64,000 nucleotides of DNA from a virus. Below, piece after piece: positions 12,778 through 64,000 of the stretch. Position 1 is the stretch's first letter. Each line of letters begins with the position of its first letter. Under the pieces are notes generated by a model, which saw only the letters and a list, made by a program, of their open reading frames with translations, did no database searches and was not told where the DNA came from. The position numbers and the translations under genes were made by a program. The stretch covers positions 14,549-78,548 of the IMG/VR virus record IMGVR_UViG_3300017917_003612. One strand, 5' to 3'.

Positions 12778-14772
12778 TTATGTTTTAATAATAAAGTAAA
12801 CTGATAGATACGGAGGCATGTTGGCATCAGTTCCTGAAGAACCGGTTGTACTAATACCTACGCTAATACCGGTGGTCGCGGTTGATGTAGCCAGTCCGGA
12901 TGTTCCTGTGCTTCTTGCGCCACTAAAATCAGCACCAGCAAATGTAGTTCCAGTTTGGTGACTGTGCCCTGGATCTGTTACAGTTGCAGTGTGCGTGTGA
13001 CTGACCACAACAGCATCTTTGCTACCACCAGTAGCACCTAATGCATATAATCCGCCAGCGCCTACTGGTAATCTGTTGGTATAATTAGGCAAATTAAATG
13101 TACTTGTGTTATCACCGACACCAAATGTAGTTCCAATTACGGCAAATAACGCAGCGTATGTGGTACGACTGACTGCGGTTCCATTACATAACAAATAACC
13201 TGTTGGCGCACTTAAAGTTGGCCACATCATCAAACTGCCAGTTGGTATACTATTGTTTTGAACAAATGCAGTGGTTGCCACTGCTGTATTAGAAGTTCCT
13301 GCTGGTAAAGTTGGTGTAACAATAGTGCCACCCACATGCAAATTACCACCAACACCTGCACCGCCTGCAATTGTCAATGCACCTGTTGTTGTAGAAGTGG
13401 CAGAGGTTGCAGCAGCAATTGAACTGTTGCCACCCAGTAACAAGTTGGCGGCTATTATTGCGTTTCCAACAATGCTAGCATTACCACCAATGTCCGCAGA
13501 GGTTCCTACACTTAAACTACCAGACAATGACGAAGATGCGGCATGAATTGTTCTAAATCGCATTCCGGTGCTACCAATATTTGAACTAATATTGGCAGTA
13601 GGAATAATGTCTGCACCAAGATAAATTTGTGCAATGTTGCTGTTGGTAGCAAAAATGTTTGCTGCTGTAACATTGCCTACCAAAAGATTTTCCGAAAATA
13701 TATTGCTCCAACGATTAGAAGTATTGCCTAATGTATAGCTTACATTGGCAATAGGAGTTATATTGCCTGAAAAATTAGCTACACCGGTTACTGATCCAGA
13801 CAATATGTCCACATAATTTTTAGTAGCCAGAGCAAGTGCAGGAGATGATGCAATTGGATTTGCATATGCTTCTGGTAACCCAGTTTGAAAATTTCCCCTC
13901 AAGAACGGAGTTTGTACACCGCCTGTTCGTAGACTCAAAACAAAATCACGGTTGTTGGTTTGATTTCGTAGCGTAACAACACCGCTGCTAACTGAACCCA
14001 CAAAATCACTGGCTGCACCAAATGTCAATCCTGAATCATTTGTCAAAGACAAGGAACCATTTAAAGTGCCCGAAACGTCATTGCGTAGGAAATTTGATCC
14101 GGCTATAGCTACGCCACTGACATATAAACTATTGGATACTTCTGAGTTTCCCCAAAAAGCCTGCCCTAAGGTACTGTTAAGATTTAGGCCTTTTCTAATG
14201 GTTGCAAAACCCGGAACGTCCGACACAAACGGACTATCTTTGCTCCATATGCCTACCAAAATATCATCTATAAAAAATTTAATAACAACAAATGTTGTAC
14301 TAGGTGGAGCATCTGTTACTGTGTCTGGAATAGCGCCCGAATTACCGGTGGCTGTTCTGCTTAAAGGCCCAATCAATCTCCATGTAGTGCCAGTATAAAT
14401 TTTTAATTGACCGTTTACTGTATCATACCACTGTTCGCCTGTGTAAGCGTTTGTAGGCGTACTAGCACTGAGAGTCATACCTGCTACAGTTTTCCAAATA
14501 GCATTGGCCGTGCCCTTAGTAGACGCGATGTTTACATTCAACAGTTTTGTAGTGCTGTTAAACCATAATTGACCAGGCAGCGGAGCAGTAGGCGCAGTAG
14601 CAAGGGCGAAATTTTCCATCAATCTGACCACATTTTGATTGATGAATAATCCGTAACCTTTATAGTTCTTGCCAACCAATGTCAGACTCGAGTTTGCACT
14701 GTCAGTGGTGTTATCTAGTAATCCACCGGTGATTAGCTCTGTTCCGTTGCTTAATGTAATATTATATGCCAT
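12778..14772 (-). CDS. Tail fibre/baseplate protein with C-terminal tail collar domain
   Basis: G/T/S/N-rich; IPTGSLMMW...PTGYLLCNG...YAALFAVIGTTFG...FNLP; ATAAATA upstream. Confidence 0.85.
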   Translation of the reverse strand: MAYNITLSNGTELITGGLLDNTTDSANSSLTLVGKNYKGYGLFINQNVVRLMENFALATAPTAPLPGQLWFNSTTKLLNVNIASTKGTANAIWKTVAGMTLSASTPTNAYTGEQWYDTVNGQLKIYTGTTWRLIGPLSRTATGNSGAIPDTVTDAPPSTTFVVIKFFIDDILVGIWSKDSPFVSDVPGFATIRKGLNLNSTLGQAFWGNSEVSNSLYVSGVAIAGSNFLRNDVSGTLNGSLSLTNDSGLTFGAASDFVGSVSSGVVTLRNQTNNRDFVLSLRTGGVQTPFLRGNFQTGLPEAYANPIASSPALALATKNYVDILSGSVTGVANFSGNITPIANVSYTLGNTSNRWSNIFSENLLVGNVTAANIFATNSNIAQIYLGADIIPTANISSNIGSTGMRFRTIHAASSSLSGSLSVGTSADIGGNASIVGNAIIAANLLLGGNSSIAAATSATSTTTGALTIAGGAGVGGNLHVGGTIVTPTLPAGTSNTAVATTAFVQNNSIPTGSLMMWPTLSAPTGYLLCNGTAVSRTTYAALFAVIGTTFGVGDNTSTFNLPNYTNRLPVGAGGLYALGATGGSKDAVVVSHTHTATVTDPGHSHQTGTTFAGADFSGARSTGTSGLATSTATTGISVGISTTGSSGTDANMPPYLSVYFIIKT

Positions 14773-49627: not shown

Positions 49628-51514
49628 TTACTTCTTTTCAGTAAAATCAGCATCAACTACATTATCGTCTGTTGATTTTACAGTTTCTTGAGCTTGAGTT
49701 GTTTGCTGTTTTGCCTCTTCAATTATTTTCGTTGCAGCAATTAGATCAGACAAACGAGTGATAATTACTTCTTTATCTGTTTCGGTAATTGCCTTTTCTA
49801 GTTCAGCGATAGAATCATTTATCTTAGTCATTTGATCCTGAGAGAGTTTGCCTTCCACTTCTTTTAGATCAGTTTTAACCTTATGGATCACCGAATCCGC
49901 TTGGTTACGAGTTTCGATCAATTCGCGTTGCTTTTTATCGGCATCGGCGTTGGCTTCAGCATCACGAATCATTTGGTCAATTTGTTCTTTACTTAAACCA
50001 GAATCAGATTTAATAGTAATCCGATTTTCTTTGCCAGTCTTTTTATCTTGGGCACTTACTTTAAGAATACCGTTGGCATCAACATCTAATACAACTTCAA
50101 TCTGTGGCATGCCTCTTGGTGCAGGATCAATACCTTCTAAATTAAATTCGCCTAGTAATTTATTGTGCTGTACTAATTCACGCTCGCCTTGATAGACTTT
50201 GATAGTAACTGCAGGCTGATTATCTTCAGCTGTAGAGAACACCTGACTATTCTTAGTTGGTATTGTGGTATTCTTTTGTATTAGTTTGGTCATCACGCCG
50301 CCCATGGTTTCAATACCTAGGCTTAGTGGGGTCACATCAAGTAGTAGAACGTCTTTTCGATCACCACCTAGAACTGCACCTTGTACTGCCGCTCCTACTG
50401 CAACTGCTTCATCTGGATTGACATCACGACGTGGCGCCCGTCCAAACAACTGTTCAACTGCTTCTTGTACCTTGGGCATACGTGTTTGTCCACCAACAAG
50501 GATAACCTCATCAATGTCGCTGGCTGTGATCCCTGCGTCGCGCATAGCAACTTTACAAGGCTCAATTGAACGTTGAATTAGATCTTCAACTAGACTTTCA
50601 AATTTGGCTCTAGTAATCTTGAGATTTAGATGTTTAGGGCCTGTAGCATCGGCAGTGATGTAAGGCAAATTGACATCTGATTGGTTATTGTTTGATAATT
50701 CAATCTTGGTTCGTTCTGCTGCTTCTTTTAGGCGTTGTAGTGCCATAACATCTTTAGAAAGATCAACGCCGCTTTCTTTCTTGAATTCAGTGATTAGATA
50801 ATCCATTAATCTTTGATCAAAGTCTTCGCCCCCAAGGAATGTGTCCCCATTGGTGCTAAGTACTTCGAATTGTTTGTCACCATCCACATTAGCGATGTCG
50901 ATAATAGATATATCAAAGGTACCACCACCAAGATCATAAACAGCAATCTTACGATCAGCTTTTTCATTTTTGTCTACTCCGTAAGCCAGTGCCGCTGCGG
51001 TGGGCTCATTGATTATACGCAGAACTTCGAGGCCTGCAATTGTGCCGGCGTCTTTGGTAGCTTGTCTTTGACTATCATTAAAATACGCAGGCACAGTAAT
51101 AACTGCTTGCGTTACTTCGTGTCCAAGATAATCTTCGGCAGTTTTTTTCATCTTGCGAAGAACTTCTGCTGAGATTTGCGGAGGTGCTAGTTCTTGGTCA
51201 TTTGCACTTACCCAAGCATCACCATTAGCACTTTCCATAATAGTATAGGGCATTAGGTTGATGTCTTTTTGAACTGCCTGCTCTTTGAACTTGCGACCAA
51301 TCAAGCGTTTAGCAGCATAGATAGTATTTCGTGGATTAGTTACAGCTTGGCGTTTAGCACTAGCTCCAACAAGAATTTCGTCTGAGGTATATGCAACGAT
51401 ACTAGGTGTAGTTCTAGCACCTTCTGAATTTTCAATTACTTTGGGGGTTCCGTTTTCGACAACTGCTACGCAGCTATTAGTGGTACCAAGATCAATACCA
51501 ATGATTGTGCTCAT
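49628..51514 (-). CDS. dnaK: Chaperone DnaK (Hsp70)
   Basis: [33 protein letters not shown]-like linker, DADFTE tail. Confidence 0.97.
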
Positions 51515-51573
51515 ATTTTCTCCTTTAGTAAGCAAGTAAATTTCAGGCCCTTATGGCGCCTGCAATTATTTAT
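51515..51573 (-). promoter_or_regulatory. ROSE-like leader and ATAAATA promoter before dnaK
   Basis: ACUUGCUUACUAAAGGAGAAAAU-AUG; hairpin 51544-51562; ATAAATA at 51573-51567. Confidence 0.6.
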
Positions 51574-52806: not shown

Positions 52807-53157
52807 CTATTTATCAGTTTTTATTTGTGTTGCAAAATAGTGTAACGGATCATCTATTTTTTGCTGATTTTCAATATAGTTTTTTGGGCCATAATAATAA
52901 GTTTTGCTCAACAAACATAAATCTTGATAATCGTCGGTTCTTGTGTTTATAATAACAGCATGACTTGCATTTACCGCTTGCGACAACCAAGTGAAATTAT
53001 TCATGTTTGGTGTGTAAACGTAAACATTGAATGCTGATTTGCTAAATTGGCAAAATCTTATTACAGCGTCTACTTCTTGCTGTTCTGGATCAACTAATGT
53101 AACTGAATGCAATCCGTTGTTTACAATATCCGGCGGAGTTATTAAATTACTATCCAC
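52807..53157 (-). CDS. Hypothetical phage protein
   Basis: LITPPD...NVYVY...WL. Confidence 0.7.
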   Translation of the reverse strand: MDSNLITPPDIVNNGLHSVTLVDPEQQEVDAVIRFCQFSKSAFNVYVYTPNMNNFTWLSQAVNASHAVIINTRTDDYQDLCLLSKTYYYGPKNYIENQQKIDDPLHYFATQIKTDK

Positions 53158-54817
53158 GTTTTTGTTTTAAAATTTCTTCAATTTGATGTTCTACTTGTTC
53201 TTGTTCGGCTTCACTTAGATCTTCAATTTCGTATTCGCCAGCTTCTAGCTTTTCTATCAAATGTTGGATGTATGCTTGATTATAAGTATAACTGTCTGTA
53301 GTGTTTTTGTCTACTTCAATCCATTTTTGTCCGTTCCATTTAAACAGCCGGTCAGGTAAATAGTCGGTTCTAATAAACATGTCACCTTTCATTGGACTGT
53401 CTGGAAAACGTTCTCCAAAACCACACTGACTGGCTTCGTCTAACTTTTCATTATCTGCTTGTATTGCCATACTAGGATACAGTTTATTAAATGCATCTAA
53501 ATTATAAACTTTACCTTTATAGCGTACGGCGTAATCTGCACCACGACGTATCGGTGTATTAAATTCATCTACAGGAGGTGGCGGCTCTACTGTTTGTTCC
53601 TCAGCCGCAGCCATCGTCGGAACAATTTTTTCTTCCTCTACAGATGATTTGATTTGAGCAATTTGATCTTCAGTTAAAGCACCGTCGTCTTGGGGATATG
53701 CGGCCTGACTGAGTTCTACTAAATCTGATGCCATTTCTTTGTTTTCGTCTATAACACGCTGTGCCCACATCTCTTCATTTTCCAAAACAGGAATATCAAG
53801 ATCTGGTTCTGGTCTTTCTATTTTGGCTGCTTCGGTATTTGCTTGTTCGGCACGATGTTGTTCATCTAGCATGTCTGCTGCCTGTGCAGCTAGCTTTGCT
53901 CGTTCAAAAAATTCATCCGCTTCGCGATCTGGATTTGATTGTTTGCCTACTCCGTTCAACGCTGCAATCTCTTCTTCAGTCCATAGTCGTTGTTCTACAC
54001 CTGGTGGATTGGGATTGATGTTCTGTGCTGCTTCATCATCATGCACCCAACCACCTTTACCTTGTCTTGCCCATTCAAACTGTTTGTTGGCAGCAAGTAT
54101 CAGCGTCAGGGCAAGCGGATCAAAAACAATAACAATAAGAATAATAACCCAGCGTACAGCCCGCTCAAGAATATTTTGATCGGGATTGTCGCCGTATATA
54201 AGAGCAGCAATATATTTGATAGGTCCAACTTCGGCTTCTACCTTTCTAGCTTCGGCGGCAAGTGGTGCTCGCTCTTGTTGTAATTGTTGAATTGTTTTTT
54301 GACTCTTTATGATTTCGGCCTGTAGTGCAGCTCGCTCTTTGGCCTGTTGTTTACGAATAACAACTGCTCGTTCTGTGCCTCGTTCCGAGTCTGTTCTGCC
54401 AAGCATTTGATCCACTTGTGCATTCATTTGCTCAAGTGCCTTCTTGGCCTGCGCGATATTTTCTCGTTCAGTAGCAATCTTTTCATCGTAAATGGCAACC
54501 TTGCTTGTGGCATCGCCGGTCACTAGACTTTGGTCTGAGTGTGCTTTGGATAAGAAACCAAAGATACCCATACTGGTAAGTAACATGAGAAACACAATGG
54601 CCGGAATCAGATAGGTCTTGAACACCCAGCCGGCTCTGTGCCAATTGTTGTGTAACCAAACTGTGGCAACCAATTTACCAGCTTCAAGTGCTCCGCCCAT
54701 TATAATAACAGGAACAACTGCGGCACTAAAGATAGCAGTAAGACCTTCAACTGAATACCATGCTGCAATAGCAGAAATGGTAACAGCCACCAACATGATT
54801 AGTGATCCAAATAACAT
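53150..54817 (-). CDS. Multi-TM coiled-coil protein with acidic C-terminal region
   Basis: N-terminal TMs, TSMGIFGFLSKAH, EVGPIKYIA, VFDPLA. Confidence 0.8.
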   Translation of the reverse strand: MLFGSLIMLVAVTISAIAAWYSVEGLTAIFSAAVVPVIIMGGALEAGKLVATVWLHNNWHRAGWVFKTYLIPAIVFLMLLTSMGIFGFLSKAHSDQSLVTGDATSKVAIYDEKIATERENIAQAKKALEQMNAQVDQMLGRTDSERGTERAVVIRKQQAKERAALQAEIIKSQKTIQQLQQERAPLAAEARKVEAEVGPIKYIAALIYGDNPDQNILERAVRWVIILIVIVFDPLALTLILAANKQFEWARQGKGGWVHDDEAAQNINPNPPGVEQRLWTEEEIAALNGVGKQSNPDREADEFFERAKLAAQAADMLDEQHRAEQANTEAAKIERPEPDLDIPVLENEEMWAQRVIDENKEMASDLVELSQAAYPQDDGALTEDQIAQIKSSVEEEKIVPTMAAAEEQTVEPPPPVDEFNTPIRRGADYAVRYKGKVYNLDAFNKLYPSMAIQADNEKLDEASQCGFGERFPDSPMKGDMFIRTDYLPDRLFKWNGQKWIEVDKNTTDSYTYNQAYIQHLIEKLEAGEYEIEDLSEAEQEQVEHQIEEILKQKRG

Positions 54818-54877
54818 AGAGTGTATTTATAGAATTGTATGACTAGTATACTATACTAAGAGAAGTTGGTCAACGAT

Positions 54878-56230
54878 TTAGGTTATTTCTTCCCAGTTCA
54901 TAGAAGCAAATATATCCAGATTATTGCCAGTAGATTTAACACACAAAGTAAATTCAACAGCATTAGCTGTAAATGGGTTGCGTTCTAATTGATAAAAGAA
55001 AGGCACAGGTGCCAAAGATGGAGTAACACTAGTTTGATTTGAAGCAGCTATGTATCCGGTTTCTACGTTGCCTTGAAACTGTGGCCCAGTGAATGAAATA
55101 CTGGTGCCTGACAAATTGTACTGCACCGAACTGTTCACTCCAAAGTCAGTCCAAGTACCACCGGCGGTAACACCACCTACCACAATGAAATATTGAAAGT
55201 TACTGGCTGCGGTTACTGCGATGCTGAAATTTTTTGGTGTTACAATAGCATTCAATCTGTCCGGTCTTAATCTAATGCTCATCACAGGATAAAGCACATT
55301 TGGTGTAGACAACTGATACGGCGAACTCAATTGATGGCCCACGCTGTGTGGTCTGCCAAATATTTCGTAGCCGCCTTCGCTCACAATACTTGTACAAATC
55401 TGTTTGAGAGTGGAATTGCTCTGTGTAGGTCCGGTGTTTACAATTTCGCTACGCACCGGCAAACAGGCTGTGGTCATGTAAGTGGTGTTTATGAGATTGG
55501 CATGATCAAAACTGTGACAATGAATAAATTCACCATCAATGATGAAGCCAATTCTTACTGTGCCAACACCCAACCATTCAACATCGGCCCACATGATCTG
55601 TGCTTTGCTGATATCTATGACTTTGGTTGATGTGCCGGTACCATTCAATGGATCCACATTCCAATTGGCCTGCGTGACTTTATCTTCAGATATTGTGCCT
55701 GAGCTGTTGGATCTTATTACCCAACTCAAAGTGGAATCAGCCAGTTCTAAAAATATTCCGTTTTGTGCATCAAAGTAACCATTGCGCTGAGTAAGATTAG
55801 CTTGTGCCGGAGCAAACACAAAACTACGCATGATCTGTAAACTTTTGGCCGGTTGATAAGCAAACACTCGATTGCTTTCTCTTGTGACCGAGTCTCCGCT
55901 ACTTGTGCCTACACGCATTTCTACCAATGCTGCATTGGCATTGAAAACCACCGAACCGCCGCCAACTATGTTGTTACTGCTTTTGGCATAGTCAATATAA
56001 TATCTATGAAAATTGTCATGTAAAGTATAGGGCGAGCTTATTCTCAATCTACCAAATGCATCGTTGGCCGTTACCGCTGCCCCGGAAGTAGTTCTAATAA
56101 CCGGTTGTCCTAACTGGTTGTACTCCATGGCTCGATGGAGATCTAATAGGTTAGTTTCTTGTGGATGATCGTAGTTGGTAGTGTTTAGTCTGCGGTCACC
56201 TCTACCAGGCGATGGTGCTTTATATACCAT
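54878..56230 (-). CDS. Probable structural protein, beta-rich
   Basis: DAFGRLRIS, YQPAKS, EWLGVG, terminal WEE. Confidence 0.65.
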   Translation of the reverse strand: MVYKAPSPGRGDRRLNTTNYDHPQETNLLDLHRAMEYNQLGQPVIRTTSGAAVTANDAFGRLRISSPYTLHDNFHRYYIDYAKSSNNIVGGGSVVFNANAALVEMRVGTSSGDSVTRESNRVFAYQPAKSLQIMRSFVFAPAQANLTQRNGYFDAQNGIFLELADSTLSWVIRSNSSGTISEDKVTQANWNVDPLNGTGTSTKVIDISKAQIMWADVEWLGVGTVRIGFIIDGEFIHCHSFDHANLINTTYMTTACLPVRSEIVNTGPTQSNSTLKQICTSIVSEGGYEIFGRPHSVGHQLSSPYQLSTPNVLYPVMSIRLRPDRLNAIVTPKNFSIAVTAASNFQYFIVVGGVTAGGTWTDFGVNSSVQYNLSGTSISFTGPQFQGNVETGYIAASNQTSVTPSLAPVPFFYQLERNPFTANAVEFTLCVKSTGNNLDIFASMNWEEIT

Positions 56231-56233
56231 AAA

Positions 56234-56656
56234 TTATACCCAAGGCCTACCCAATATCAATCCGTTGGGCTGTGGATTGTCTACCACGTTGTTGCCACTG
56301 TACTGTGTAGGTAATTCTGTAATATCATAAGTTGATCTTGGATTACCGTCTGCTGCTCGATCCAGTTCACTCAAATCAAGTTTGGCCACTTGCTTGAGCT
56401 GTTTGGTGGCCAATCGATCAATTACATTGGCAGTTCTCAAAGTAACATTTGTATTGATACCATAAGATGCCAAAGTGGCACTTTCGTTGGTCAGCACTGC
56501 ATTGTTGTATACCAATTTGTACCAACTGCTATCCCAATTGGCTGTGGCATTTATTGTGGCTTTGACCTGTGTCACTGTGTTGGTAGTGTCCACGTTGTAT
56601 GAATTGTATACCGCTGTGTTTAATAGGCTTTGTACGGAAATGGTAATAGCGGCCAT
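56234..56656 (-). CDS. Ubiquitin-like (beta-grasp) domain fused to a small C-terminal domain
   Basis: Residues 4-76 align by eye to ubiquitin: TVTQVKATI, KLVY, TLASYGI, TL. Confidence 0.7.
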   Translation of the reverse strand: MAAITISVQSLLNTAVYNSYNVDTTNTVTQVKATINATANWDSSWYKLVYNNAVLTNESATLASYGINTNVTLRTANVIDRLATKQLKQVAKLDLSELDRAADGNPRSTYDITELPTQYSGNNVVDNPQPNGLILGRPWV

Positions 56657-56658
56657 GA

Positions 56659-56961
56659 TTACATCCTTGCTTGCCAGCCCGGGTACATACTGGGCGCATT
56701 GGTTCTAATGTCTGCGGGATTTTTGCTGTGATGTACATCATCGCCAGCTGGAAATGCTGCTGTCACAGGCGCAACTATTTCTGTGGGTGTATTGGCATAT
56801 TCTGCGGTATCACAATCCAAGATACCTGCTAGACGCTGCATGTCGGCCATTTCTTGTTCGGGTGTAACATCAACAGCTACAGCTATAACAGGCTCGGGTT
56901 CGGGTGCGTCAGCTTGGTCAATTACGTCTAGTACGCCGCGGATAATATCGGTGATCTTCAT
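56659..56961 (-). CDS. Hypothetical acidic protein
   Basis: TAAATA 5 nt upstream; YANTP, SKNPADIR. Confidence 0.7.
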   Translation of the reverse strand: MKITDIIRGVLDVIDQADAPEPEPVIAVAVDVTPEQEMADMQRLAGILDCDTAEYANTPTEIVAPVTAAFPAGDDVHHSKNPADIRTNAPSMYPGWQARM

Positions 56962-56975
56962 ACGAATATTTAGTC

Positions 56976-57000
56976 AAAAAAAGCCCGCACTAGGCGGGCC
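56976..57000 (-). terminator. Rho-independent terminator
   Basis: GGCCCGC-CTAGT-GCGGGCT followed by a T run. Confidence 0.85.
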
Positions 57001-59933: not shown

Positions 59934-60488
59934 TCAACTACCATAAAATATATGGCGCCCAATTTTGGCAATGGGTTTTTTACCCCACCCCGGTTGAACA
60001 TAGTCAGCATGATAATACATTGCATTTTTGAGACTGGGTAGTCTAAAATTTTCCAGTAACACTTTCTTGGCTGCTTCTTCACTTTCGCGATACAAAGGTT
60101 GGTAGATTGGACGTACTCTGTGAGTGCCATCGCAATACCACGAAAACTGACAAACAACTTTTGAATAGATTACATTCTTCTGATATACTACTGCACAGAC
60201 GTCATTGGGAAACTGTCCGCTGGCTGCGCGATTGAGTGTGACTTGAGCTACAGCAACTTTGCCTTCAAATGGTTCGCTGGCAGCTTCCCAATAAATGTTC
60301 TGCGTTAAGCATCGTAACTGGCGAGATCTTTCTTCTCCTGTTACCGGATGCACGGCAGCCATCTCAGCCTTCTCGGCCTTGAGTGATTCAAATTTGTTTT
60401 TGGTGACCTCTACCAAGGCGTATGTGGCTAACCACATACCAAAAACGATTGATACAAATTTTGCTACGTTAGGCAAATATTGTCTCAT
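59934..60488 (-). CDS. SleB-like cell wall hydrolase
   Basis: CLTQNIYWEA..EP..GKVAVAQVTLNR, CQFSW, YYHADYV, IGRHIFY. Confidence 0.92.
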   Translation of the reverse strand: MRQYLPNVAKFVSIVFGMWLATYALVEVTKNKFESLKAEKAEMAAVHPVTGEERSRQLRCLTQNIYWEAASEPFEGKVAVAQVTLNRAASGQFPNDVCAVVYQKNVIYSKVVCQFSWYCDGTHRVRPIYQPLYRESEEAAKKVLLENFRLPSLKNAMYYHADYVQPGWGKKPIAKIGRHIFYGS

Positions 60489-61456: not shown

Positions 61457-62584
61457 CTATAAACTAAATCCCTTAAATGTATTGTTATCAACATCTTGTT
61501 TTGTACCGCCAATTACATAACTACTAATTTCTGTTTCCTGCGGAGCCACTTGCACCTCAGCACCAGCTATCCATTTTGCTGTCCATGGTAAAGGATTGCT
61601 ACCGGGCTTGATACCGCAATTCAAACCAACCGCTGTCATACGTTTACAGGTCAACCAGTCTACATATTGACTTAAAAGTTGCTCGTTTAGTCCAATCATG
61701 CTTCCGTCTTTAAACAAATAATGTGCCCAGGATTTTTCCTGTGCTGCTGCTGCCAAAAACATCTGTTCACATTCTGCACGAGTTTCTTCTTTAATAGAAG
61801 CATAATCAGGATCATCCTGTGGTAGCAATTTTAGTAGGGTTTGCGTGGACCCTAAATGTACGTTTTCGTCTCGTGCGATCAATTTAATGATCTTGGCATT
61901 GCCTTCCATCTTTTTCAATTCTGCAAACGCCCAACTACATGCAAAACTAACATAAAAACGTATGCCTTCTAGTGCATTGACTGAATTTAAACATAACCAC
62001 AGTTTTTTCTTTAAGTCGTACATATCAATAACAACTTCTTTACCATTCACAGTGTGTTGGCCTACTCCGAGTAAATTATAGTATTGTACTGTTTCTATCA
62101 AAGCATCGTAGTAACGACTAATATCTTTAGCACAATTTACAATCTCTTCAATGTCGGTCAGTTCATCAAACACTACACTAGGATCAGAATAAACATTGCG
62201 AATAATGTGAGTGTAACTACGACTATGAATAGTCTCGTTAAACGCCCAAGTCTGAATCCAAGTTTCCAGCTCAGGAATAGTAGCAATGGGCAGGAAAGCA
62301 AGGTTAGGACTACGGCCTTGAACACTGTCAAGAAGTATTTGTCGCTTAAGATTACTTGTAAAAATATGTTGTTCATGTTCTGTGAGTTCTTTGAAGTCTT
62401 TGCTGTCTCGAAGCACATCTACTTCTTCTGGCCGCCAAAAGAAGCCTAACTGTTTGTCTGTTAGTTTATCAAATTGTCTATACTTCAGTGTGTCGTAACG
62501 TTGTATTGGTTGTGCACCAGAAGGGTCTAAAAATGCCAACGATTCAGTATGCTTGTTCTTGTTACTGATATTAAAGACGCTCAT
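61457..62584 (-). CDS. nrdB: Ribonucleotide reductase class Ia beta subunit
   Basis: [43 protein letters not shown]. Confidence 0.97.
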
Positions 62585-63030: not shown

Positions 63031-64000
63031 TTAAATTACACAACTATCACAGTCTTCTTGGTCAACAACTTCTGTTTCTTCAACAGATTTAGATTCTACT
63101 AACTTGTCAATATTGATTTCACCTTGACCATCAAATGTGTTGAAATAGTACAATTGCTTTAATCCATACTTGTAACACATGAGAAGATGTTGCAGCATTT
63201 CACTCATTGGGATCTTTTCATCTTCATAGTATTGTGGATTGTAAGAAGTATTTACACTTATGCCTTGATCAATGTATTTTTGTAATACTGCACATAGCTT
63301 CAAATAACCTTCGGGACTTATTTGATCCCAAAGTAGTTCATATTTGTTCTTTAAACGGCGATATTCAGGTACAACTTGACGTAATGCACCGTGTTTGCTT
63401 TGTTTGACTGATACATAACTGCGTGGGGGTTCAATTCCATTAGTTGCATTACTAATCTGCGCAGATGTTTCTGCTGGCATTAGTGCCATCAGTGTAGCAT
63501 TTCGCTGGCCAGTTCTTTGGATTTGTTCACGCAGTGATTGCCAAGGCATACGCTCTTGGTAGGTCACTAATTCATCCACGTCTCGTTTTCTAGTATCAAT
63601 GGGTAATACACCCTTTGCACTTTTTAGGTCTTGCCAGCGAGTACAGGGTCCTTGTTCTTCTGCGAGATCTGCAGAAGCCTTGATCAAATAGTATGACCAG
63701 GCTTCTGCGTACTCGTCAACTAGAGCTAATGCTCGGGAGTCACTATAACTAACATCATTCTTAGCTAGGAAGTAGGCAAAATTGATAATACCAACCCCAA
63801 TTGGCCTAAATTCTTTAGTAGCTAATTGTGCTGCAAGAATTGGATAATTTTGATAACTCAATAATGCATCCAATCCTCTTACCGCCAACCGACACATCTT
63901 CTCGAAGTCATGTGGGCTTTTTACATTGCCCCAATTGATCGCTGATAGAGTACACAGGGCGATCCTACCATCCTCGTCGTTGACATCTCGTAACGGCACA
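63031..64000 (-). CDS. nrdA: Ribonucleotide reductase class Ia alpha subunit, 3' part
   Basis: CTLSAIN, LMPAETS, TNGIEP, KQLYY, terminal CDSC. Confidence 0.97.
   Translation of the reverse strand, partial: VPLRDVNDEDGRIALCTLSAINWGNVKSPHDFEKMCRLAVRGLDALLSYQNYPILAAQLATKEFRPIGVGIINFAYFLAKNDVSYSDSRALALVDEYAEAWSYYLIKASADLAEEQGPCTRWQDLKSAKGVLPIDTRKRDVDELVTYQERMPWQSLREQIQRTGQRNATLMALMPAETSAQISNATNGIEPPRSYVSVKQSKHGALRQVVPEYRRLKNKYELLWDQISPEGYLKLCAVLQKYIDQGISVNTSYNPQYYEDEKIPMSEMLQHLLMCYKYGLKQLYYFNTFDGQGEINIDKLVESKSVEETEVVDQEDCDSCVI

Follow-up and report, generated by a model that had tools for sequence, protein, structure and literature searches.

Ubiquitin proper is regarded as a hallmark of eukaryotes. 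Of published prokaryotic cases one could be verified: BfUbb of Bacteroides fragilis, a eukaryote-type ubiquitin that was apparently acquired horizontally and has lost its terminal glycines (PMC3463472). Next to ubiquitin itself, PF00240 holds the integral ubiquitin-like proteins (UBLs), including Rad23, Dsk2 and parkin, in which the domain is N-terminal, has no free Gly-Gly and is not conjugated. The present work concerns a phage gene whose product combines a domain of this kind with a small conserved module. It was found in a 78.5-kb IMG/VR virus contig (22% complete by CheckV), of which 64,000 nucleotides, here called the window, were analysed (record IMGVR_UViG_3300017917_003612, positions 14,549 to 78,548). 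The gene is an open reading frame (ORF) of the minus strand (56234-56656), starting with ATG, terminating with TAA and encoding a protein of 140 amino acids (aa) which ends in ...LGRPWV. The phage itself is an uncultured T4-like (T4-superfamily) jumbo phage of bacteria with a genome of about 350 kb. The parts of the gene are the following:

56429..56656, minus strand: ubiquitin-family beta-grasp domain without Gly-Gly, residues 1-76, as predicted by Pfam, profile comparison, AlphaFold2 (AF2), Foldseek and VIA
56237..56428, minus strand: core or putative adaptor module, residues 77-140 (N-x-I..LATKEL..KLDL..YDIT-LPTQY..DNPN-GGL-GRPW), supported by the family alignment and by stand-alone forms
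56234..56236, minus strand: stop codon TAA; one codon follows, then the ATG of the next gene in the same frame

The ubiquitin-family domain and its origin

Residues 19-73 matched the ubiquitin family of Pfam (PF00240) with an E value of 1.8e-5 and 24.9 bits, 0.5 bit short of the curated cut-off of 25.4 bits, and the 140-aa protein also matched PF18036 (Ubiquitin_4, E 3.7e-4). A family profile of 30 homologues, compared with all PDB sequences, matched monomeric ubiquitin with E about 1e-4. In the AF2 model, built with the family alignment as input, residues 1-76 show the strand and helix order beta-beta-alpha-beta-beta-beta with a predicted local distance difference test score (pLDDT) of 86-93. 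The best 50 Foldseek matches of this model in the PDB were all ubiquitin, NEDD8, ISG15 or FAT10, with target template modelling (TM) scores of 0.84-0.92, a root-mean-square deviation (rmsd) of 1.2-1.5 A and 21-26% identity. VIA-align, which is independent of Foldseek, was run against 48,161 chains; ubiquitin was matched with Z 13.5 and an rmsd of 1.3 A over 76 residues, and the best 50 matches were all eukaryotic ubiquitin or ubiquitin-like domains. Compared with a real polyubiquitin repeat, 18 of the 70 aligned positions of the window's ubiquitin-like domain (Ubl) are identical. The first-pass annotation, made from the letters of the DNA, had estimated about 17 of 70 by eye and had left the fold to be checked; the likeness goes far beyond chance and is borne out by all five methods, the predicted fold is a beta-grasp, and the structural matches are of ubiquitin type.

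The absence of a di-glycine had also been read correctly. The LRLRGG end of ubiquitin is replaced by ...RTAN-VIDRL, and the last strand (LRTAN-VID) runs directly into a helix. Of more than 290 family members, none has a glycine at or near the junction of Ubl and module; this junction reads RT[AS]N-x-I and is part of strand 5, and N77 and I79 are invariant. In two complete relatives of about 355 kb no ThiF/E1 and no Prok-JAB gene was detected, with positive search controls, and the search of the relatives for UQ_con (E2) was uninformative, its control being silent. The Pfam scan of the 140-aa protein gave no Soc and no TAPI match, and the Pfam matches were to ubiquitin only, so that the C-terminal part is neither eL40 nor eS31. 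PADLOC and NCBIfam had nothing for the protein or its neighbours. As judged from sequence and predicted fold, the Ubl is an integral, non-conjugatable domain of the ubiquitin family. It lacks the exposable C-terminal glycine of a conjugatable modifier, and neither a cognate E1 nor a deubiquitinase (DUB) of Prok-JAB type was detected in the complete relatives. Nor does it fit a sulfur carrier of the ThiS/MoaD type, having no Gly-Gly, no ThiF in the complete relatives and matches that are of ubiquitin type.

The family includes sister proteins which are much closer to ubiquitin, with 55-56% identity to the eukaryotic protein. These are the long proteins P0227 and P0230 and about 40 clusters of 130-139 aa (P0392-P0433), in which the domain has the same place in the protein and starts with MQIFVQSFLN. 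P0227 is identical to ubiquitin at 37 of 67 positions and matches monomeric ubiquitin with a phmmer E value of 1.6e-15, and P0392 has 39 of 70 positions in common with the real polyubiquitin repeat. P0227 (49.5 bits), P0230 (49.9 bits) and P0178 (26.2 bits) all score above the PF00240 cut-off of 25.4. The sisters are linked to the window protein by a gapless alignment and by the tree; in both groups two extra residues stand in the loop between beta1 and beta2 (VQS[FL]LN), and the junction to the module is the same, RT[SA]N-x-I-x-LATKEL. When 293 family members were binned by identity to ubiquitin, every bin from 15 to 56% was filled. With ubiquitin as the root, a tree of the domains unites the phage Ubls in one clade (99); the near-ubiquitin forms come off at its base, and the window protein lies in a nested, diverged clade (99). 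The underlying alignment has few columns, and differences in rate can exaggerate such a ladder. K48, K63 and the LRLRGG tail are lost even in the near-ubiquitin forms.

These data point to one capture of a eukaryote-type ubiquitin by phages, and the shared insertion and junction argue for a single capture independently of the tree. As the first residues of the module (N-x-I) end strand 5, about residues 1-68 of ubiquitin would have been grafted onto the module. The modules of the near-ubiquitin proteins are nearest to modules without a Ubl in the module tree, a weakly supported placement which would suit an early stage after the capture. The family, whose identity to ubiquitin falls from 56% to about 15%, would thus record a eukaryote-to-phage transfer followed by divergence under strong selection. 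Compared with the closest relatives, the proportion of non-synonymous differences (pN) is 0.07-0.14 in Ubl and module against 0.62-0.79 for synonymous ones (pS; 0.62-0.77 for the Ubl), which indicates strong purifying selection in both parts; synonymous sites are close to saturation in this comparison.

Several near-ubiquitin proteins (P0393-P0397, P0400) carry Joint Genome Institute (JGI) names such as "ubiquitin-large subunit ribosomal protein L40e", "small subunit ribosomal protein S27Ae" and "IMPACT family translation regulator". These names are misannotations reflecting the ubiquitin part alone, and such proteins could pass for eukaryotic contamination in metagenomes.

The conserved module and its fused domains

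In the family alignment residues 77-140 are conserved above the Ubl, and 31 of the 64 module positions are invariant, stand-alone forms included. The AF2 model of the module has a helix (residues 85-102) and a weak hairpin (117-126). No family was found for it in Pfam, NCBIfam or PADLOC, nor a usable look-alike in the ESM Atlas, and the one PHROG match had an E value of 0.03. Compared with T4 Soc (PF16855), hhalign gave a probability of 0.06%; a search for Soc in the complete relatives had no match, with a silent control.

Homologues without the Ubl, whose existence the first-pass annotation had left as a question, were found. They are complete ORFs starting with M-[AS]-x-NGIS-LATKEL and preceded by in-frame stops, and they include stand-alone proteins of 67-70 aa as well as forms whose C-terminal part is ILEI-like, LamG or larger. 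In a sample of 249 proteins the architectures were Ubl plus core (117), Ubl plus core plus C-terminal domain (111), core plus C-terminal domain (15) and core only (4); this sample was windowed by length, and a later search added many core-only clusters as well as near-ubiquitin ones. The longer relatives (n=164) have the same 140 residues at the N-terminus, followed by a variable C-terminal domain, which may be ILEI (the commonest, in proteins of about 286-293 aa), Laminin_G_3 (about 355 aa), PA14 plus GLEYA, or Toxin_R_bind_N plus Laminin_G_3. In the closest relatives, which are 86-88% identical, a LamG extension of 218 aa follows directly after GRPWV, the point at which the window protein and that of locus L004 end. 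On the module tree the presence of a C-terminal domain changes at least 33 times and that of the Ubl 5 times; with 64 columns this tree is poorly resolved, and the counts of gains and losses are rough.

The module is the ancestral, older core of the family. The tail of about 60 aa noted in the first pass does end in LGRPWV, but to describe it as the tail of a small phage protein undersells the ancestral part. This module, which has no name, ranks with the best-conserved small proteins that these jumbo phages have, and since it naturally accepts cargo at both ends it is a candidate natural display scaffold.

Two further observations concern unusual arrangements. In four proteins of 451-466 aa (P0135, P0181, P0186 and P0188) the unit of Ubl and module is C-terminal, following about 315 residues without a family match; these could be genuine fusions or artefacts of merged gene calling. 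In a 762-aa protein of L103/L104 (5995-8283) the likeness to the module is limited to the opening stretch, which corresponds to the module's first 27 or so residues (MAANGISTLATKELKQKAKLDLAAL); the gene that follows is terminase-like.

Operon and genome context

The surroundings of the gene, all on the minus strand, are listed in the direction of transcription:

56982..57000, minus strand: terminator-like hairpin with a 7-bp stem (6 GC pairs) followed by TTTTTT, closing the preceding transcription unit
56967..56972, minus strand: TAAATA, late-promoter-like; the ATG of the operon's first gene comes 5 nt later
56659..56961, minus strand: small acidic protein of 100 aa ("us100" family), conserved neighbour of the Ubl-module gene
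56066..56230, minus strand: N-terminal motif of the downstream protein, about 55 aa, NxTxYxHxxExN...Y.....P..R, predicted to be disordered
54878..56065, minus strand: lectin-like jelly-roll body of the same 450-aa protein, phrog_1645 "virion structural protein"
54824..54831, minus strand: TATAAATA motif, 6 nt before the gene for a 555-aa protein
53150..54817, minus strand: 555-aa protein (membrane helices at the N-terminus, coiled coil, C-terminal domain)

On the coding (minus) strand of the window TAAATA was counted 38 times (e.g. at 56972, 54829, 52813, 41142, 29474 and 3107), as against 13 times on the other strand, and several copies stand 4-6 nt before start codons. It may be a T4-type late promoter, in which case transcripts would have little or no leader. 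The first-pass annotation had placed the gene in a TAAATA-driven run of probable structural genes; the TAAATA 5 nt before the upstream gene's ATG was confirmed, and the structural nature of the run comes down to the phrog_1645 label.

Between the stop codon of the acidic gene and the ATG of the Ubl gene there are 2 nt. The 100-aa acidic protein has no Pfam, PHROG, NCBIfam or PADLOC family. By jackhmmer its family was found in 86 related loci, mostly upstream of the Ubl-module gene, with a downstream position in L105, L106, L109, L089, L081 and L065. In the near-ubiquitin lineage the acidic gene is directly downstream of the Ubl-module gene and is followed by a fibre-like gene of 654 aa. The two genes thus stay adjacent through rearrangement, and the gene order of the window was found again in most of 80 related loci.

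The downstream 450-aa protein matches phrog_1645 with E 1.2e-111; homologues of this family occur in cyanomyophages and in Puniceispirillum phage HMO-2011, and no homologue of the Ubl gene was found beside the phrog_1645 genes of cyanophage S-RIM12 or of HMO-2011. In its N-terminal motif the columns N16, T18, Y20, H22, E25, N27, Y37, P43 and R46 are invariant over 23 loci, whereas the remainder of the protein is exchanged; the AF2 pLDDT is below 50 for the motif and 84.9 for the body. The lectin-like body, about 395 aa, has 5411 representative homologues at 50% identity, with variable N-termini. Foldseek compared it, with low TM scores, to ConA-like lectins, glucanases, the receptor-binding Hc part of botulinum neurotoxin (BoNT Hc) and the receptor-binding domain of mycobacteriophage TM4 gp23. 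The same body was also seen at the C-terminus of proteins measuring 400-1383 aa, whose N-termini are unrelated (P0242-P0391). The 555-aa protein has some four membrane helices at its N-terminus, a long coiled coil with a weak DUF4407 match and a C-terminal domain weakly similar to phrog_11591 ("virion structural protein"), and its gene is kept downstream in many related loci.

Two ways of joining the Ubl-module gene to the lectin-like gene were considered and rejected. In-frame read-through into the next gene was discarded because neither spacing nor frame of the junction is conserved in relatives, which show TAATG overlaps, a shift of 1 nt or gaps of 10-60 nt. An equivalence of split and fused forms was not supported, as relatives with a fused LamG domain keep the downstream gene and no long homologue has a phrog_1645 domain. 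One clade (L036, L041, L044-L046, L056-L060 and L066-L070) has a different gene after the Ubl-module gene, whose protein starts with MGRPLKIAKAQAV; this start echoes the GRPW end of the module, which may be chance.

Other genes of the window encode DnaK, the ribonucleotide reductase subunits NrdAB, a tail-fibre/collar protein and a lysin-like hydrolase. Since the locus is flanked by the SleB/endolysin-like hydrolase (59934-60488, minus strand) and by the small and large ribonucleotide reductase subunits (61457-62584 and 63031-63999, both minus strand), it does not lie within a classical block of structural genes. The phage-encoded DnaK (Hsp70; 49628-51535, minus strand) is full-length and 65% identical to proteobacterial DnaK by tblastn.

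Relatives of the Ubl-module gene fall into hundreds of clusters at 90% identity and occur on contigs as long as 365 kb. Of the two complete relatives, one is of 356,865 bp and the other, which has terminal repeats, of 354,959 bp. Both carry the gene in single copy, and in both a major capsid protein of T4 type was recognised (PF07068, E about 1e-99 to 1e-101); this protein is present in all 3 near-complete genomes with the module. The gene had neither a DNA nor a protein match in the GenBank phage collection.

A putative virion adaptor, its alternatives and known systems

The reading that we favour, with modest confidence, is that the protein is an adaptor which docks on the virion and bears a non-conjugatable ubiquitin domain as its cap. 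The module would dock at a conserved site belonging to the capsid lattice or to a fibre complex, in a complex which would include the co-inherited acidic protein and the neighbouring lectin-like structural protein, the conserved disordered N-terminus of the latter being a possible contact. The adaptor would present the cargo of both its ends on the surface of the particle. In this phage the ubiquitin cap would be the sole cargo, a compact and stable surface or interaction domain that is never conjugated. The rapid swapping of lectin-like domains is the pattern of exposed binding proteins, and 64 residues of which half are invariant suggest a fixed partner. The first-pass annotation had offered a virion-displayed beta-grasp domain as one of its two suggestions, and this fits the evidence best, its place on the virion being the conjectural part. 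Several points weigh against an adaptor of the virion. In a complete relative some 139 kb separate the locus from the gene for the major capsid protein, and its flanks in the window are nrdAB, a lysin-like gene and dnaK, not a classical structural block. Core-only genes stand in varied contexts, so that the link with the N-motif protein is not universal. AF2 confidence for the module is moderate (pLDDT 64-79, below 50 in the last 9 residues), and the "virion structural protein" of the neighbour is an annotation label. The place of the protein in the particle, its docking partner and its late expression are what we infer from sequence and context.

An assembly factor is the next explanation to be weighed, and we consider it unlikely. 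Here module and acidic neighbour would fold, oligomerise or attach the lectin-like fibre protein in the cytoplasm and then be discarded, with the Ubl as a helper of solubility or folding as in the fusions of ubiquitin with ribosomal proteins. The tight, conserved adjacency to a large lectin- or fibre-type gene and to the acidic gene, in either order, is what such a factor would show, and the conserved disordered N-terminus of the downstream protein could be its client segment. TAPI of lambda and T1 offers an analogy, as it consists of a Ubl and a small C-terminal domain, is encoded beside the host-specificity gene and is not in the mature tail (PMC1779556). Chaperones, on the other hand, are not expected to be fused to fast-swapping lectin-like domains, as the module is in about half of the sampled relatives; core-only genes are found away from such fibre genes, and in the complete relatives no Prok-JAB peptidase able to release anything was found. 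A further explanation is a processed modifier, in which a protease cuts the Ubl from the module and the freed Ubl or module is attached to another protein. The layout recalls ubiquitin-fusion precursors, and the "ubiquitin-L40e/S27Ae" names given by JGI to the near-ubiquitin relatives go in the same direction; with more than 290 members free of glycine at a junction that lies within strand 5 and has invariant N77 and I79, and with neither E1 nor Prok-JAB in the complete relatives, we give this explanation hardly any weight.

The other suggestion of the first-pass annotation was a decoy of E1, E2 or DUB enzymes. By occupying one of these the Ubl would inhibit host defences based on Ubl conjugation, such as Bil or the type II cyclic-oligonucleotide-based antiphage signalling system (CBASS) with its Cap2 and Cap3. 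A ubiquitin fold without a reactive C-terminus would suit this role, Bil conjugates its Ubl to a phage tail protein (bioRxiv 10.1101/2023.09.04.556158), and the Gly-less BfUbb of B. fragilis inhibits the eukaryotic pathway in vitro (PMC3463472). Nothing specific to a decoy was found, however: the domain appears to descend from eukaryote-type ubiquitin, no defence-system model of PADLOC was matched, neither E1 nor Prok-JAB was detected in the complete relatives, the Ubl evolves faster than the module, and many phages have the module without it. Lectin fusions, an operon of late type and a structural neighbour are ill-suited to an early cytoplasmic inhibitor, and K48, K63 and the C-terminal tail gripped by E1 and DUB enzymes are gone even in the near-ubiquitin forms. 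We judge a decoy improbable. Slightly less probable still is that the captured ubiquitin, displayed beside eukaryote-style adhesion domains (ILEI, GLEYA/PA14, LamG), engages eukaryotic ubiquitin-binding machinery or surfaces; were this true, the virion would bear a device for "eukaryotic association", directed toward eukaryotes encountering the phage or its host, for example grazing protists or the hosts of symbiotic or intracellular bacteria.

In the full-text literature, which was covered incompletely, no description of a ubiquitin-type domain in jumbo phages or of the module was found, and this is weak evidence of novelty. Among the systems described, T4 Soc and Hoc serve as analogies only. 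Soc, which is small and comes from a T4-type phage, tolerates cargo at both ends, and the module has no sequence relation to it; Hoc carries adhesion-type domains on the capsid, binding of the module to the capsid being hypothetical. TAPI of lambda and T1 resembles the phage protein in its N-terminal Ubl, its small C-terminal domain and its position beside a host-specificity or fibre gene. The Ubl of TAPI, however, is ThiS/MoaD-like, with a conserved C-terminal glycine, a Gly-rich linker and a flanking JAB+NlpC peptidase (TAPK), whereas the phage domain is of ubiquitin type and has no glycine and no linker, and no Prok-JAB was found in the complete relatives. The neighbours differ as well, J and TAPK for TAPI, an acidic and a lectin-like protein for the phage gene. 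The Ubl of Bil (bioRxiv 10.1101/2023.09.04.556158; 10.1101/2023.09.26.559546) is a beta-grasp domain like the phage Ubl, and both belong to phage-bacterium biology involving virion proteins, but the former is host-encoded, has a reactive glycine end and works with E1, E2 and DUB partners, none of which applies to the latter. Likewise the precursors Ub-eL40 and Ub-eS31 have Gly-Gly and a ribosomal protein that is cleaved off, in contrast to the phage protein with its unrelated C-terminal part and no Gly-Gly.

The closest likeness is with ubiquitin and the integral UBLs of PF00240, both in fold (rmsd 1.2-1.5 A) and in core residues; with the integral UBLs the phage domain also has in common its N-terminal position, the lack of a free Gly-Gly and the unconjugated state. 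From ubiquitin it differs by the two-residue insertion VQS[LF]LN, by the replacement of LRLRGG with residues of the phage module and by the loss of K48 and K63. We regard it as probably a member of the same family as ubiquitin and the integral UBLs, in a new host and with a new fusion partner. BfUbb is a secreted single domain with a signal peptide, while the phage domain is fused to the putative adaptor and has no signal peptide; the phage family, moreover, has diversified into a large family reaching down to 15-25% identity to ubiquitin. The transfer to phages nevertheless appears to be of the same kind as that of BfUbb, which took place in a bacterium.

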